From IMG/VR virus record IMGVR_UViG_3300030060_003579, positions 1-32,056 of that record: a DNA stretch of 32,056 nucleotides; one strand, 5' to 3'. Shown piece by piece: positions 1 to 31,511 of the stretch. The number at the start of each line of letters is the position of its first letter. The first letter of the stretch is position 1. The notes beneath the pieces are model-generated. The model made no database searches. It was not told the DNA's origin and saw nothing but the letters and a program-made list of their open reading frames with translations. This DNA comes from a virus (Duplodnaviria; Caudoviricetes). Both the position numbers and the translations under genes were made by a program.

Positions 1-10
1 ATAAAGCTAA

Positions 11-42
11 GGTTACAAGTTCAAATCTGGTCACCCCGACCA
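11..42 (+). mobile_element. attP: attP core: 3' end of a tRNA with a tRNA-Pro-type acceptor strand
   Basis: GGTTACAAG-TTCAAAT-CTGGT-CACCCCG-A-CCA gives a T-arm (one A.G mismatch), an acceptor strand ending G72-A73 as in tRNA-Pro, and CCA. It lies upstream of a tyrosine integrase operon. Confidence 0.85.
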
Positions 43-53
43 AATCACCTAAT

Positions 54-487: not shown

Positions 488-808
488 ATGAAAATGACAT
501 TTAAAATAAAATCTAAAAAACATTTTGAAAAATTATTACGCAATTCTACAGCCTGCATAAAATTTTATGATGAACAAAGTGGTTTTTTAAATGATGGTGA
601 TAAAAAAATCCATTCACCGATTTTAGGTGACCCTGAAGTAGCATATCAAATTGCAAGGATTTATATTGATTTATATGAAATATATTTGTCAATCAGTTGT
701 GACTTTGATTTAGGTAATTATCCATATACTCTTTTTAGTTCATCAAATATTGATAATTACCCTTTTTATTGGAAAGGTTTTGAATACTTAGAAAATTTTG
801 GAGAATGA
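488..808 (+). CDS. Hypothetical protein, 106 aa, very AT-rich
   Basis: ORF with AGGAG RBS at 474-478; no recognisable motif. Confidence 0.7.
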   Translation: MKMTFKIKSKKHFEKLLRNSTACIKFYDEQSGFLNDGDKKIHSPILGDPEVAYQIARIYIDLYEIYLSISCDFDLGNYPYTLFSSSNIDNYPFYWKGFEYLENFGE

Positions 809-809
809 C

Positions 810-1985
810 ATGGATATTAAAATAAAATATCAAAAATCATTAAAAATTTATGTGGCTAGAATATCTGATGGTTCTCGATATGGTAGACAAATCTATGGCA
901 AAACACCTGAAATAGTTAAAGAAAAACTACAAGGTTTTTGGTTAATGCCTACTAAGCAGAACAGAGATAGCATAACTATAGGTGAGGTATTGTCAGGTTT
1001 TATTCTGCACATGGAGAAAAGAACTTTAGGCAAGGTTGATGGACAGAAAAGAATTAGGCTGCAAAGTTATGAAAACTATAAATCTTATGACAAAGCTTTG
1101 GTTGCACTTACTGTTTTATCTAAGCCTTTAGGTGATTATAAAATACAACAGATAGATAAAAACTTTCTTAATGAAATACTAAATGCACTTGAACAGAAGT
1201 ATAATACTCACAGTGCAAAGCATAAGCATGAGTTATTTAGCTATTTTAAAAGTGCAATGCTGTGGTTGCACAAACAGGATAGAGAACTGTATCCACTTGT
1301 TGACCTCAAAGAGATTGTTGTGAAGCTTACAAAGAAAGAATCTTTTGTTCCTAAAAGACTAGATGCTCAGCTTGTATTGAGAACTGTTGACCAGGTATGC
1401 AAGGAAAAGTATGCAATATATGTTTACCTCTGTGCCAATGGTTTAAGGGCATCTGAGGCAAATGGTTTAAAGCCATCTGACTTTGATTGGACTAAAAACA
1501 CTGTGCATATTCAGAGAACTGTAGACAAGTCAAGAAATGTTATTGCTATTGAGACAGGCTATGAGTGTGGAACTAAAACTCCATCGTCTAACAGAAAAGT
1601 ACCATTAGGATCAGAATTGGCTAATAGAATTAGAAAGTTTATTATGTTGCACCCAAACCTAGAATGGATGTTTCAAGCAGATAGAAAATACGATGGCAGA
1701 CCTATTAAGCAGCAGAATTTAGCTAAAGGTGGTTTGCATAAAGCATTAAAGCATTTAAAAGAAAAAGGGCAGAATGTAGAATGGAAAGGTGCAATGCATG
1801 GTCTAAGACATTACTATGGCTCTTTGTTATTGGCTGAAGCTGCTAAACTTGGTAGAAACCCAACATGGGTACAGAAGAGGCTAGGGCATAGCAATTTACA
1901 AACAACGCTTGGCATCTATTCACATGACATTGATGAAGATAACCAAGAGTTAAATAATGAAGTAGAAAGACGTTTAAACGGCTAA
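810..1985 (+). CDS. int: Tyrosine integrase
   Basis: Catalytic set GLRASE, TKT, HGLRH, LGH, IYSH. ATG 810 follows GGAG at 800 (the track starts at TTG 798). Confidence 0.95.
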   Translation: MDIKIKYQKSLKIYVARISDGSRYGRQIYGKTPEIVKEKLQGFWLMPTKQNRDSITIGEVLSGFILHMEKRTLGKVDGQKRIRLQSYENYKSYDKALVALTVLSKPLGDYKIQQIDKNFLNEILNALEQKYNTHSAKHKHELFSYFKSAMLWLHKQDRELYPLVDLKEIVVKLTKKESFVPKRLDAQLVLRTVDQVCKEKYAIYVYLCANGLRASEANGLKPSDFDWTKNTVHIQRTVDKSRNVIAIETGYECGTKTPSSNRKVPLGSELANRIRKFIMLHPNLEWMFQADRKYDGRPIKQQNLAKGGLHKALKHLKEKGQNVEWKGAMHGLRHYYGSLLLAEAAKLGRNPTWVQKRLGHSNLQTTLGIYSHDIDEDNQELNNEVERRLNG

Positions 1986-3544: not shown

Positions 3545-3600
3545 TATTTGGTGAGGGTCTAAATTTGAACGAGGAAACATGAAACTAGACCCTCATAACT
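3545..3600 (-). ncRNA. Candidate structured RNA, hairpin A (10-bp stem, 24-nt loop, 3' ACCA)
   Basis: Minus strand AGTTA-TGAGGGTCTA-[GTTTCATGTTTCCTCGTTCAAATT]-TAGACCCTCA-CCAAATA; flanks identical to 30994-31044. Confidence 0.55.
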
Positions 3601-3697
3601 AATTAACTGCAGAAACTGCAATGAGAAACAACAGATAGACAACTATAATTATCAGCATCCATTTTCTCATAAATAATTCTATTGGGGTTCTACTCAT
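3599..3697 (-). CDS. Small single-TM membrane protein, 32 aa (absent from ORF track)
   Basis: MSRTPIELFMRKWMLIIIVVYLLFLIAVSAVN; the start overlaps the end of the nuclease gene. Confidence 0.6.
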   Translation of the reverse strand: MSRTPIELFMRKWMLIIIVVYLLFLIAVSAVN

Positions 3698-4526
3698 TTC
3701 TGTATCCCCATATCTTTTTTACCTGTGCTATTATTTCACTATCAACATTGTTCCAAACATAGTGACTGAAGTTTGGAATTATATAGCGTGAAATAATCTC
3801 TGCCTTATCACTTATTTTTAATAAATTCTGTCTTGCCCTTGCCGACATTCGCATGGTTTCAAATGCAGAATTTAAGGCTTGTGGTTGTAATAACTCACAA
3901 TTTGTCTGATCAAACACCATATAGCCTTTGTGGTTAGCATAGATGATTCTGACAGGTTTATTAGATGCTTTGCTGTATATAGCAGCCTGTCTTACATTAC
4001 TCGCTGTAGGACTCTTTGGTAGCGACTGTGTACGTTCTGAGAAAGTACCATCAGCTTTCTGAAAAGGTGTTGGCCATTTGCTTTTAGCTTCATTGATATA
4101 ATCAAACTCTACTACATCAACATAACCGCCAACATTAAGGTCAATTCCTTCAGCATCTGTCTTGCAAAGCTGTTCTATTTCATCAACTTTTATATTGCAC
4201 TCAGCAGATGCCAGGACAAAGTTATTAACTACAGTATCAAAATGTTTCATGCATAATTTATGCTGTTCATGGTCTTTGGCATTGGGTGCATTAAACTTAG
4301 ATAGTTCGTGCTTACAAGTCTCTATAGCTTCTTTTAATGGTTTACCCTCTAAATACATCTGCCATGCCCTATGAGCCTCTCCACCTGCTCTCATCTTGCT
4401 ATTTGCAGGGTTAATTCTATCTCTATCAAGACCTGCTACATACTTGGCAATGAAGAAGTCCAAAGGACAATGCTCAGGGTCTAGACGGCTCGGAAACCAC
4501 ATATCAATAAGATTGCTCATAGTCAT
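3690..4526 (-). CDS. PD-(D/E)XK (Cas4/RecB-like) exonuclease
   Basis: MRAGGEAH, IEQ, GGYVD, INEAKS, RQAAIYS motifs; start may be ATG 4520. Confidence 0.8.
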   Translation of the reverse strand: MTMSNLIDMWFPSRLDPEHCPLDFFIAKYVAGLDRDRINPANSKMRAGGEAHRAWQMYLEGKPLKEAIETCKHELSKFNAPNAKDHEQHKLCMKHFDTVVNNFVLASAECNIKVDEIEQLCKTDAEGIDLNVGGYVDVVEFDYINEAKSKWPTPFQKADGTFSERTQSLPKSPTASNVRQAAIYSKASNKPVRIIYANHKGYMVFDQTNCELLQPQALNSAFETMRMSARARQNLLKISDKAEIISRYIIPNFSHYVWNNVDSEIIAQVKKIWGYRNE

Positions 4527-5730: not shown

Positions 5731-6049
5731 ACATTCAAGGAACAAAGGTGCAGCATATGAAAGAGAGATTGTTAATCAGCTAAAAGAACATGGTGTACTA
5801 GCTGAGAGAGTACCATTGTCAGGTGCTATGAAGGGTAATTATGGCGGTGATATAAAGCTTGGCCCTGTACTTGGATATATCGGAGAGTGCAAACGCTCCA
5901 AGAAAAGCCTTAGTAGAATTTATAAAGCATTAGAGCAGGACAACGCTGATTTTCTGTTTGCAAGAGATGATGGCAAGGAGACTGTAGCCATTGTTAGAAT
6001 GGAAACCTTACTGACATTGTTTAAGCAGCTTGGATGGGCGAATGAATGA
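5720..6049 (+). CDS. Hjc-type Holliday junction resolvase
   Basis: SRNKGAAYERE..RVPLSGA..GDI..GECKR; start ATG 5720 after GAGG. Confidence 0.85.
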   Translation: MGGKHSRNKGAAYEREIVNQLKEHGVLAERVPLSGAMKGNYGGDIKLGPVLGYIGECKRSKKSLSRIYKALEQDNADFLFARDDGKETVAIVRMETLLTLFKQLGWANE

Positions 6050-6809
6050 GAAACTCAGGCATCTTGATTTATTCTCAGGTATCGGTGGCTTTGCACTTGG
6101 TCTTGAAAGCACTGGCGGTTTTAAAACAGTTGGTTTCTGTGACAATGAACCCTTTGCTCAAAAGGTGCTTAAAAAGCATTGGCCTGACGTTCCCTGCTAT
6201 GAGGATGTAAGGGATGTCGGAGTGGAAACAGTTGGATATAGAGGAGTGGATATCATCACAGGAGGATTTCCCTGTCAGCCCTTCAGTGTCGCAGGAAAGC
6301 AAGACCCAAAAGACAACCGCCAACTCTGGCCTGAAATGTTTAGAATTATCAAAGAAATCAGACCCACCTACGTCATTGGAGAGAATGTCAGAAATCTTAT
6401 TAGCATCAGAGAAGGAGTGGTATTCGAGCAGGTGTGTACTGACCTGGAAGGTGAAGGTTACCAAGTGCAGACGTTTGTATTACCTGCTTCAGCAGTCAAC
6501 GCACCGCACCAAAGATACAGATGTTGGATTGTTGGTATCATGGCCGACTCCACAACATCAAGATCACAAACATCATCCAAAAAACGCTTGGAACAGAAAG
6601 AAACAGAAAAAACAGATGCAATTACCTCACATGGTGGGAATATCAGAAACTTCAACTTTAAAAACAACTGGACAGTTGAACCCTCAGTGGGTCGAGTGGC
6701 TCATGGGATACCCAATAGGGTGGACAGACTTAAAGGACTAGGCAATGCAGTTGTGCCACAGATACCTGCTGTTTTGGGTAGAGCGATATTAGAGGTGCAT
6801 GATGGCTAA
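6042..6809 (+). CDS. DNA (cytosine-5) methyltransferase, large (alpha) polypeptide
   Basis: Motif I DLFSGIGG, IV GFPCQPFS, VI GENV, VIII HQRYR, X RLKGLGNAVVP; motif IX is not in this frame. Confidence 0.92.
   Translation: MNEKLRHLDLFSGIGGFALGLESTGGFKTVGFCDNEPFAQKVLKKHWPDVPCYEDVRDVGVETVGYRGVDIITGGFPCQPFSVAGKQDPKDNRQLWPEMFRIIKEIRPTYVIGENVRNLISIREGVVFEQVCTDLEGEGYQVQTFVLPASAVNAPHQRYRCWIVGIMADSTTSRSQTSSKKRLEQKETEKTDAITSHGGNIRNFNFKNNWTVEPSVGRVAHGIPNRVDRLKGLGNAVVPQIPAVLGRAILEVHDG
6214..6741 (+). CDS. Nested +1-frame methyltransferase small (beta) polypeptide carrying motif IX
   Basis: 175-codon ORF inside the MTase; GAGG at 6201-6204; ends LNPQWVEWLMGYPIGWTD (motif IX-like) and contains WPTP. Confidence 0.75.
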   Translation: MSEWKQLDIEEWISSQEDFPVSPSVSQESKTQKTTANSGLKCLELSKKSDPPTSLERMSEILLASEKEWYSSRCVLTWKVKVTKCRRLYYLLQQSTHRTKDTDVGLLVSWPTPQHQDHKHHPKNAWNRKKQKKQMQLPHMVGISETSTLKTTGQLNPQWVEWLMGYPIGWTDLKD

Positions 6810-11941: not shown

Positions 11942-13882
11942 TTGGCATACGGATCAGGCGAAACTGAGCCAACAAAAGAAACTGACAGAGCCGCTTACTG
12001 GAACAGTAAGATTACAGAGGCGAGAAGGTTTGAAGAGACTTGGAGAGACAGGTCACAGGCTTTAGTAGATAAATACAGAGATGATGGAATAGACAGGCAG
12101 GATAGACCCTTTCATACCATGAATATCTTTTATAGCAATGTTGATACATTAAAGTCAGCTTTGTATTTTAAAACACCGAAGCCAAAAGTCAGCAGACGTT
12201 TCAAAGATGGTGATCCTGTTGGGAGAGCCATTGCAGAACTGATAGAACGTGCATTGCTGTATCAACTCGATATGTATAACTTTGACAGCACCATGCGTAG
12301 GGCTATTGAAGATATGCTGATTACTGGCAGAGGTGTTGTCAGGATGCGTTATGACCCTGTAATTATTGAGGGAGAACCAAAGCGAGTTGATATAGAGCAG
12401 CAACCTATTGGTGAAGGTGTATTCAGATTTGTCAGTAAGGATGGTGAAGAATTTACACCTGATCAGATCAAGCAGGACACAAGAGGACTTTTTGTAGAGG
12501 GTGATGCAGAAGAGGTTGTTGGTGAACAGTCTATCTACTGTGAGTATGTGCATTGGTCTGATTTTACGATTGAACCAAACAGGGTATGGGATGATGTAAA
12601 CTGGATTGCATTTCGTATCCTGATGACTAAACAGCAGTTGATTGACCGCTATGGTGAAGAAGCTGCCATGAATATACCTCTAACCTACAGGCCTGATTAC
12701 TCATATAATGCAGAAAAAGAAACAGAGACAGATAGAGCAGAGGTATATGAAATTTGGGATAAGCTTTCTTCAAAACAGCTATTTCTTGCTATGGGGCATG
12801 ATAAGATACTTGAAGAGAATGATGACCCATATAACCTGATAAACTTTTGGCCCTGTCCTGAGCCTATGTATGCTGTGAGTACTACAACCACAACAACACC
12901 AGTTCCTGAGTTTATGATCTATGAAGATCAGGTGGCAGAACTTGATCTCATTACAGGCAGAATTGGTGTACTGACTGAAGCACTGAAAAGAAGAGGTGTT
13001 TATGATGCATCTTTCTCAGAATTGCAAAGATTGGCTGATGCTAGAGATAATCAATTTGTTCCTGTTGACAATATGGCAATGCTGCAGGCAGGCGGTGGTT
13101 TACAGAATGTCATGCAGGAAGCACCATTGGCAGGTATTATCCAGGCTTTACAGCAACTGTATCAGTCAAGACAGGTTATAGTTCAAACCATTTATGAGAT
13201 TGTCGGTATCTCTGATTTGATGCGAGGTACTTCTGCGAGTAGAGAAACAGCGACTGCTCAAAGAATAAAAGGGCAGTTTGGCTCTATGCGACTTGTCAAC
13301 AGACAAAGAGAGTTAGAGCGTTTTATGGATCAGATTATGGAAATGAAGGGCGAGATGCTTGTTGAGAATCTTGAGCCTGATGTCTTGCAGAAAATAACCT
13401 CTGTATCAGTAACTCCTGAGATGGTTGCTGTTTTGAGAAATGACAGATTGCGTTGTTTCAGGGTCAGAATTGATACTGATGAATCACAGGCACTTGATGC
13501 TGCCGTAGATCAGAAACAGAGGACTGAGTTTTTGACAGCTTCAGTACAGTTTCTGCAATCAGTTGGCCCACTTGTTTCTTCAGGTGCATTGGGATTTGAA
13601 CAGGCAAAACAGATGCTTTTATTTGCAGCTAAAGGTTTTTCAGGTGCAAGAGAATTGGAAGAAACACTTGAAGCATTACAACCGCCACAAAGAGGGCCGT
13701 CACCAACTGATAAATTGGTAGAGGTAGAAGCAGGAAAACTAAAGGCTCAAACAGAACAGGCTGCGGCTGATGCACAGGTTAAAGTTGCAAGATTGCAGTT
13801 AGATAAAGAAAAAGCAGATATAGATGCAAGACAGAAACAGGAAAAACTTGAAATTGAAAAAGCAAAATTGGTGGCAGGATAA
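11942..13882 (+). CDS. Portal protein (P22-like, with C-terminal coiled coil)
   Basis: 646 aa directly after terL; TTG start after GGAG; GISDLMRG..ETATAQRIK motif. Confidence 0.85.
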   Translation: MAYGSGETEPTKETDRAAYWNSKITEARRFEETWRDRSQALVDKYRDDGIDRQDRPFHTMNIFYSNVDTLKSALYFKTPKPKVSRRFKDGDPVGRAIAELIERALLYQLDMYNFDSTMRRAIEDMLITGRGVVRMRYDPVIIEGEPKRVDIEQQPIGEGVFRFVSKDGEEFTPDQIKQDTRGLFVEGDAEEVVGEQSIYCEYVHWSDFTIEPNRVWDDVNWIAFRILMTKQQLIDRYGEEAAMNIPLTYRPDYSYNAEKETETDRAEVYEIWDKLSSKQLFLAMGHDKILEENDDPYNLINFWPCPEPMYAVSTTTTTTPVPEFMIYEDQVAELDLITGRIGVLTEALKRRGVYDASFSELQRLADARDNQFVPVDNMAMLQAGGGLQNVMQEAPLAGIIQALQQLYQSRQVIVQTIYEIVGISDLMRGTSASRETATAQRIKGQFGSMRLVNRQRELERFMDQIMEMKGEMLVENLEPDVLQKITSVSVTPEMVAVLRNDRLRCFRVRIDTDESQALDAAVDQKQRTEFLTASVQFLQSVGPLVSSGALGFEQAKQMLLFAAKGFSGARELEETLEALQPPQRGPSPTDKLVEVEAGKLKAQTEQAAADAQVKVARLQLDKEKADIDARQKQEKLEIEKAKLVAG

Positions 13883-30044: not shown

Positions 30045-30488
30045 ATGGACATGGAAAAACTAAGACAACAACTCATCATTGATGAATCGGTGAAGCTCGA
30101 GGTGTATCTTGATCATTTGCAACTGAAAACTGTTGGAATAGGCCATTTATGCAGAGAAGATGAACCAGAGTTTGATGAGCCTGTAGGCACACAAATTACA
30201 GAAGATAGATGCACAGAACTGTTTGAAGAAGATATTAAGTCAGTCATCAAGGACTGTAAGAAGGTTTTTGAAGATTGGGATGACATGGATGATGAAGTCA
30301 AACAAATCTGTGCCAATATGATGTTCAATCTCGGTTTGCCAAGATTTAGCAAATTTAGAAAAACCATTAACAACATCATAAACAAAAACTATTTGAAAGC
30401 TGCTGAAGAGATGAGAGACAGCCGTTGGTACAGGCAAGTTACTAACAGAGCAGAAAGATTAGCTAAAAGAATGGAAGCAATAGCGTGA
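30045..30488 (+). CDS. Endolysin, T4-like lysozyme (GH24)
   Basis: E-x8-D-x5-T catalytic pattern (ESVKLEVYLDHLQLKT), VGIGH, NMMFNLG, DSRWYRQVTNRAERL. Confidence 0.92.
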   Translation: MDMEKLRQQLIIDESVKLEVYLDHLQLKTVGIGHLCREDEPEFDEPVGTQITEDRCTELFEEDIKSVIKDCKKVFEDWDDMDDEVKQICANMMFNLGLPRFSKFRKTINNIINKNYLKAAEEMRDSRWYRQVTNRAERLAKRMEAIA

Positions 30489-30993: not shown

Positions 30994-31044
30994 AGTTATG
31001 AGGAGTATATTTGATTGGTGTCACTTTTTGCTCCTCACCAAATA
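30994..31044 (+). ncRNA. Candidate structured RNA, hairpin B (9-bp stem, 21-nt loop, 3' ACCA)
   Basis: AGTTA-TGAGGAGTA-[TATTTGATTGGTGTCACTTTT]-TGCTCCTCA-CCAAATA; flanks identical to hairpin A. Confidence 0.55.
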
Positions 31045-31055
31045 AAGGATAAAAT

Positions 31056-31511
31056 ATGATTAGTTTACTAGGCTCATTGTTGGGCTTTGGAACAAGTTTT
31101 TTGCCTTCAATATTAGATTTTTTTAAACAGGCACAGGCTCACAAACAAAAACTTGAAATGATGAAAATGCAGAGTGAGTTACTTGAAAAGAAATCTGCAC
31201 TGCGTATTCAGGAACTGGACAAGCAGGCTGAAATAAAAGAAGTGGAAGGATTGTATAAACATGATGCAAGTTTGGATGGTGGTAAGTTCGTTAACGCTCT
31301 ACGAAGTTCGGTTAGGCCTGTCATCACTTATATTTTTATGGGCTTATTTATTGCCGTAGAAGTTTCAATAATAGTTAAGTTTATGGAAACTGGCGGTGAT
31401 TGGACAGGAGCAGTAAACCTTTTATGGAGTGATGAAGTTGCAGGACTTTGGTCAGCTATATTAGCTTTTTGGTTTGGCAACAGAGCGATCTCAAAATTTC
31501 AAAGAAAATAA
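31056..31511 (+). CDS. Holin-like protein (3TM, GTA-holin-like)
   Basis: LRSSVRPVITY..ILAFWFGNR; lysis region. Confidence 0.7.
   Translation: MISLLGSLLGFGTSFLPSILDFFKQAQAHKQKLEMMKMQSELLEKKSALRIQELDKQAEIKEVEGLYKHDASLDGGKFVNALRSSVRPVITYIFMGLFIAVEVSIIVKFMETGGDWTGAVNLLWSDEVAGLWSAILAFWFGNRAISKFQRK

Follow-up and report, generated by a model that had tools for sequence, protein, structure and literature searches.

What is the short hairpin that stands directly before the putative holin gene of this temperate marine phage, and what does its loop do, given that a second hairpin with the same flanks and a different loop is found elsewhere in the genome? The reading that we favor, at roughly even odds (about 0.5), is that such hairpins would be antisense cassettes released by RNase P, that sister units would carry a guide against the restriction gene mrr, and that the hairpin before the putative holin gene, here called B, would act in the same manner on the start of a host mRNA. 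The window, by which we mean the whole stretch of 32,056 nt that was analyzed (record IMGVR_UViG_3300030060_003579, 97% complete), is annotated with integrase, resolvase, methyltransferase, terminase, portal, capsid and lysozyme genes and represents a temperate phage. The features on which the argument turns are the following:

1..45, + strand: copy of a tRNA 3' end, likely the attP core, sharing its 3' end with a host tRNA-Pro
798..1985, + strand: tyrosine integrase (temperate lifestyle)
3549..3600, - strand: unit A in the early operon, with leader 3600-3595, G+1 at 3594, 10-bp stem, 22-nt loop and ACCA at 3552-3549
3690..4526, - strand: early-operon gene upstream of unit A (PHROG 10230, unknown function)
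30045-30488: lysozyme, near the putative holin
30994..30999, + strand: 5' leader of B (A-2, U-1), a predicted RNase P leader
31000..31007, + strand: 5' strand of the B stem, an acceptor-like stem of 8 bp that begins with G+1 at 31000
31008..31028, + strand: payload loop of B, 21 nt; contains a small apical hairpin and, at 31017-31022, the GGUGYC that is invariant in its class
31029..31036, + strand: 3' strand of the B stem, pyrimidine-rich and also anti-SD-like
31037..31040, + strand: ACCA tail of B (discriminator plus CCA)
31056..31511, + strand: putative holin directly downstream of B, labeled from its position beside the lysozyme (PHROG 6637)

The initial annotation had proposed that one constant-flank pattern occurs here in two copies, and this was borne out: the pattern is found at 30997-31043 (+) and at 3546-3597 (-), and 0 of 100 shuffled sequences gave two matches (shuffle mean 0.00). 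The flanks of 10 nt and 12 nt are identical between A and B, and both hairpins are indeed intergenic, share the orientation of the genes beside them and lie closely 5' of a ribosome-binding site (RBS). B consists of one hairpin of 37 nt and a tail (unit 31000-31040); its ACCA ends 15 nt before the ATG at 31056, the Shine-Dalgarno (SD)-like AAGGA lying between them at 31045-31049. Compared with shuffled sequences, B folds with z = -3.2 and A with z = -4.9. Neither hairpin gives a tRNA or tmRNA cloverleaf with ARAGORN or Rfam, an intrinsic terminator (GC stem plus U run) is absent at both, and the phage record holds no match to a CRISPR or tandem repeat family and no cas or other effector gene nearby. 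A known terminator or repeat family, which had been named beforehand as counting against the proposal, was thus looked for and none was found. The gene after B had been called a holin; it does adjoin the lysozyme gene, but the label is positional only, the family being of unknown function and no Pfam family being matched by the ORF.

The capsid protein is 96% identical to its counterpart in a SAR116 single-cell genome (L199, genome G001), and a prophage in that genome is a near relative of the phage. One end of the prophage is a tRNA 3' end, and its lysis genes run on into sequence resembling positions 12-184 of the record, which makes it probable that the phage genome is circular. Consequently, the separation of 27 kb first reported for the two copies applies along the linear record, and across attP the hairpins are ~5 kb apart. 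The tRNA 3'-end attachment cores of the phage (1-45) and of the prophage (L202:2038-2080) differ, which suggests that close phages integrate at different tRNAs. Relative to this phage, the prophage capsid gene (L202:17552-17809) has an insertion of ~257 nt near its start. Within the integrase operon, the motif GGAGAATGAC stands before or overlaps three successive gene starts (289-298, 475-484 and 797-806), and a 59-aa gene at 296-475 is kept in relatives. The overlapping frames 6030-6809 and 6214-6741 both match DNA methyltransferase families in PHROGs, and only 6030-6809 matches Pfam; among nine related loci, L119 is the only one with the phage methyltransferase.

A family of units with tRNA-like ends

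The pattern and covariance-model searches that the initial annotation had suggested found many further instances and no match in Rfam, and its idea that tRNA-minihelix-like scaffolds carry payload loops and form a family is now supported by at least 60 distinct units in marine phages. Judged by their sequences, these units are a real and, within the literature searched, unreported family of structured, modular phage RNAs that resemble the C4/CI kind. Their common frame consists of a leader, G+1, a stem of 8-14 bp and a 3' RCCA; they are 32-82 nt long and start with GAG at the 5' end. At the A site, in the early operon, they are single, and at the B site they stand singly or in tandem (up to three) before putative holin genes of three mutually dissimilar types. 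An exact-flank scan gave 35 viral matches, 10 of which are A orthologues, relaxed scans brought in further units, and a unit A occupies the same position in 9/9 relatives of the gene upstream of A. Among the relatives of the putative holin (80 kept of 121 found), the three closest carry units, with differing loops and in one case as a tandem pair, and the covariance model found no unit in the other 77 kept relatives.

A sequence-only junction pattern gave 83 matches, 32 of them before a putative holin of one of the three types; both stems reach at least 8 bp in all 32 of these and in 0 of the other 51. Outside the search pattern, the 3' ends of the 32 downstream units are RCCA (30) or ACCC (2), and the leaders of the 32 upstream units have A-2 in every case and U-1 in 24, many of these junction units being close relatives and so non-independent. 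For comparison, the leaders of host tRNAs have A-2 in 11/25 and U-1 in 13/25, and none of the 25 host tRNAs starts with GAG. A filter that required stem, leader and tail kept 64 distinct units, and conservation counts taken from this filtered set are partly circular. After four of the 64 had been dropped as unrelated or chance (L168, L179, L193 and L196), the classes comprised nine A units, 20 short units (S), two of B type, 28 long units (L) and the single unit L040. Both its position and its GGUGYC, a core invariant in 22/22 S/B-type units (21 besides B), place B with the S units, and a covariance model built from these units also finds A (E = 0.003). The loop had initially been described as variable; loops do differ between the two copies, but they do not vary freely and sort into conserved classes.

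Unit-bearing phages vary in capsid type and in size (34-56 kb among complete or nearly complete records). Similar DNA was found in none of 50,697 annotated phages, and our literature search found no report of the hairpin family; its short motifs are absent from the seven searchable supplements of PMC10690425, whose files 1 and 2 may list the family without a function. For host chromosomes, the covariance model gave one weak look-alike (L510:12971-13022 in G001:C12, E = 0.23), which probably lies inside a gene. An unrelated phage (43% GC) has, before a primase-like operon, two tandem units that keep the leader/G+1/RCC frame, contain several hairpins inside and have no Rfam match (L193:2930-3058, -). 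Single units with the same frame occur in other phages at L160:3001-3064 (+) and in L624 and L630, that of L160 lying ~135 nt after a tRNA gene (model E = 0.0007). The scaffold may be far more widespread. The single unit at L040:2492-2534 has a fourth loop type, and its apical loop resembles a tRNA anticodon loop.

The stems covary in both of the larger classes. In the S/B-type class (22 sequences including B), two-sided changes occur at 6/9 pairs, with 99.5% of cells paired; the corresponding values for the 28 sequences of the L class are 9/13 and 99.7%. The covariation score was reached by 0/500 shuffles, and slid controls drop to 41-69% paired. The small apical hairpin in the loop also covaries. 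Many stem pairs are G-U, which on the opposite strand are A-C mismatches; these frequent pairs hold on the transcribed strand only. This speaks against a DNA-level element, such as a cassette recombination site or a cruciform, a reading favored by the fact that close phages differ by gains, losses and exchanges of units. Grouped with it, and equally improbable to the point that we give them almost no weight, is a conformational switch, suggested at the outset, in which loop B pairs with its own tail; that form is 9.4 kcal/mol worse (-6.0 vs. -15.4 kcal/mol) and is impossible in 20/22 related units, which do not have the necessary UGGUG.

Predicted release by RNase P

The units have the features of an RNase P substrate, namely a paired G+1, a 3' RCCA and a single-stranded leader, and the L15 GGU partner is kept in 4/4 RNase P RNAs of the host family. 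Passages of PMC11143913 describe hairpin model substrates as well as these determinants (RCCA, which pairs with the L15 GGU; G+1/C+72, on which there is stacking; and A-2/U-1 in the leader), and a passage of PMC5499578 names the 4.5S, CI and C4 RNAs as hairpin-like RNase P substrates, with 4.5S ending in CCC. On these grounds we consider it quite probable that host RNase P would cleave at G+1, and somewhat likely that the 3' end would be released by an endonuclease and trimmed to CCA, yielding a trans-acting RNA. In the arrays, the gap between one CCA and the next G+1 is just 3-7 nt, and therefore both ends would be freed by a single cut, in the manner of tRNA operons. Removal of a 3' trailer down to CCA is a general step of tRNA maturation. 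Applied to this locus, B would be cut out of the late transcript by host RNase P, the product would be a stable small RNA, and pairing of its loop at the translation start of a host mRNA would block the translation of that mRNA.

The same cut might instead serve the neighboring gene in cis. The initial annotation had allowed for processing sites of this kind, and cleavage at G+1 would leave a protective 5' hairpin on the downstream transcript and in this way adjust the putative holin (B) or the early gene (A). A cis site would suit the position of the final unit, whose end is 5-15 nt from the next RBS at the A and the B site alike and, at the B site, in front of putative holins of three dissimilar types; it would also suit the lack of promoter and terminator matches in a search at B. 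However, the G001 prophage has no unit before its putative holin despite 91% identity across that gene (an essential holin role for B is not supported), units occur in just three of the 80 kept relatives of the gene, tandem arrays and class-conserved loops would be superfluous for a cut site, and the SD is not covered by the hairpin. We consider a purely cis-acting site unlikely, and B may possibly tune its downstream gene.

Candidate pairing partners of the loops

The guide-like loops of the initial annotation are supported for the A class, whose loops are anti-SD/start and in one type match Mrr_N starts; for B, and for this phage's own A, searches returned no host target. Each of the nine distinct A loops is complementary to an SD followed, after 3-5 nt, by a start codon; judged on the loop alone, this holds for 0/55 other loops. 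A search of five host-family genomes with the L118-type loop gave five matches vs. two in controls; one of the five is a gene start, belonging to an Mrr_N gene of the host-family genome G003. A tighter L118-type pattern, refined after the G003 match had been seen, gave one match in 192 SAR116-order genomes, at the same G003 start (control 0). The L118-type pattern matched 40 times in a metagenome scan; 13 of these are further A units, and among the other 27 the sole true gene start, by inspection, is again Mrr_N (L361). For six guides, the binding energy with the two Mrr_N starts is -26 to -34 kcal/mol, in each case lower than the best of 300 shuffled sequences, and this phage's own A type reaches -11 to -13 kcal/mol on them. 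L118-type A units thus have extended complementarity across the SD and start codon of a host gene. The A guide variants read MPVP, MPMP and MPIP, and ATG/GTG start alternation occurs among them. Mrr is described, in the relevant passage of PMC3874209, as a type IV, modification-dependent restriction enzyme.

Two starts underlie the mrr match. In G003 the gene meets the contig edge after 150 aa; L361, from a non-host contig of 51% GC, is an N-terminal fragment of 146 aa; and no catalytic domain is visible in either. In G001, none of 2104 ORFs begins with the peptide pattern of the L118-type guide, and by energy alone one ordinary G001 gene ties with mrr for the L118 guide (-32.1 vs. -31.9). Among 3996 candidate starts, the mrr start ranks 2, 1, 6 and 1 for four guides. 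Four other Mrr_N genes in the SAR116 order are poor matches to the guides, and when further Mrr relatives were sought in the genome contigs, only G003 itself and one distant gene were found. Taken together, mrr is very probably the target of the L118-type A units. Relatives of the upstream gene at 85-93% identity carry the mrr-type loop and one at 73% carries the loop of this phage; loop types assort independently of flanking genes, which points to cassette exchange. Tracking of the phage C5 methyltransferase with the mrr guide was considered and rejected, as one of four covering loci has the gene and this phage has it together with a different guide. The A loop of this phage gave no target in its own genome or in the host searches, where all matches were at control level.

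Loop B can be read in a similar way. The reverse complement of the loop plus 3' arm is SD-N6-GTG-ACA-CCA-ATC-AAA, that is, a GTG and four codons. In a ~98% identical strain (four contig sets from one study), B differs at two loop positions and at none in the leader, stem or tail; one of these changes (31024 C>T) turns anti-GTG into anti-ATG, and in L643, the other B-type unit, an ATG start with similar codons can be read. The strain changes also keep the small apical hairpin, and a structural constraint fits them equally well; many of the 20 S units, which share the core of B, do not read as anti-start. We therefore offer loop B as an anti-start guide tentatively, as a reading that could fall either way, and that its target would be a host defense gene is doubtful. 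No target stands out in the phage's own genome (record 97% complete), 32 matches in viral contigs include no convincing gene start, host-family and SAR116-order genomes gave none, and a scan of all genomes gave 59 matches in many unrelated families from which no target emerged. In 1.87 Mb of host stretches, the best match, 14 nt upstream of a murG-like start, was judged near chance. McrC, which we had presumed to be a candidate, is represented by five genes in the 192 genomes, none of which matches. No consistent host gene start was found for S and L units either. The missing target of B is weak evidence, since these genomes are incomplete and accessory defense genes are sparse in them, Mrr_N being present in 5/192 genomes of the order.

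A temperate phage with the processing logic of C4 (PMC5320573, in part) could also be expected to use such loops on its own transcripts, as immunity RNAs of C4/CI type directed at an antirepressor or at the integrase operon, and a small gene past attP does begin with similar codons. That attP-side gene, however, binds B at -19.7, whereas background starts reach -24.9, neither A nor B has a target that stands out in the phage's own genome, S and L units have no antisense self target in eight phage records, and there is no Rfam C4 match. The immunity reading is largely refuted in silico, and we give it very little credence. In G198:C1, the loop of an L unit (13061-13122, -) resembles, in the same sense, the virion-protein gene of its own phage at 24261-24305 (z = -6.5, duplex scan), possibly by chance.

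A further reading accepts the release of small RNAs and makes decoys of them, the B, S and L loops binding a host RNA-binding protein, a nuclease or the CCA end of tRNA rather than an mRNA start. The bound element would be the G-rich apical hairpin, which covaries and whose GGUGYC is invariant while the remaining loop varies, or the AU-rich loop of the L units (35-55 nt, with a conserved U-run); that so many S units do not read as anti-start, and that searches gave no mRNA target for B, S or L, would be accounted for. There is presumably also a likeness to CsrA-binding hairpins and tRNA anticodon loops. With A units on the same scaffold plainly anti-SD/anti-start, both known B-type loops reading as in-frame starts with similar codons, and no binding protein identified, we nonetheless regard the decoy as improbable.

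Returning to the antisense reading, the units are probably anti-host. In its widest form, which we regard as speculative, marine phages may possess a protein-free, modular anti-defense system in which hairpin arrays are cut by host tRNA-maturation enzymes into stable guides, each aimed at the start of a host defense gene (mrr for one class) and swapped between phages, with B as a late-expressed guide. If true, phages would counter restriction via RNA silencing of defense-gene translation and not via proteins or DNA modification, and would borrow tRNA processing to turn a 40-nt cassette into a stable guide. The loops would then record which host genes these ocean phages are pressed to silence and would also predict hosts. 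The scaffold would be a minimal natural design for stable antisense RNAs.

Comparison with known systems

CRISPR-like arrays and RNA anti-CRISPRs share with the phage units constant flanks, variable inserts, tandem organization and RNA-based counter-defense. The units differ from CRISPR-like arrays in numbering one to three, in having no cas or effector gene nearby and in a processing that is apparently borrowed from tRNA maturation. The CI RNA of the P4 satellite phage acts on its own leader to end transcription, and for the units our search found no such cis target. Together with the M3 RNA of phi80, CI RNA is likewise a phage-encoded, hairpin-like, non-tRNA substrate of RNase P, according to a passage of PMC5499578.

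The closest likeness to the C4 RNA of P1/P7 (Rfam RF01695) and to the C4-like sRNAs of Acinetobacter is release by host RNase P at the base of the closing stem, which is predicted here. As described in parts of PMC5320573, PMC12197685 and PMC2864571, C4 is cut from a longer transcript by RNase P, and its variable loops set the target and cover a ribosome-binding site. C4 starts with GGW, has three stem-loops in ~77 nt with the two short loops a' and b', and acts on a target of the phage's own (ant), whereas the phage units are single hairpins of 32-82 nt with a GAG start, occur in tandem, and have as the one target found a host restriction gene. Rfam models of C4 and related RNAs gave no hit at gathering score in the phage record, and none at E <= 10 (4 loci) or E <= 1 (7 loci). 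With no model match, one hairpin and no own-genome target, the units are not members of C4.

Trans-acting phage sRNAs such as PreS of lambda are likewise small phage RNAs that pair with a host mRNA, as portions of the review PMC12197685 describe; they are single sRNAs of the Hfq type, unlike units on an RNase P scaffold, and the text of the review has no mention of RNase P scaffolds or of restriction genes as targets (0 occurrences of both terms). With hairpin model substrates, the 4.5S precursor and external guide sequences, the units share G+1, the long stem, the RCCA/CCC tail and the A-2/U-1 leader (passages of PMC11143913 and PMC5499578). Unlike RNase P model substrates, they are natural, phage-borne and arrayed, and their loops are interchangeable.
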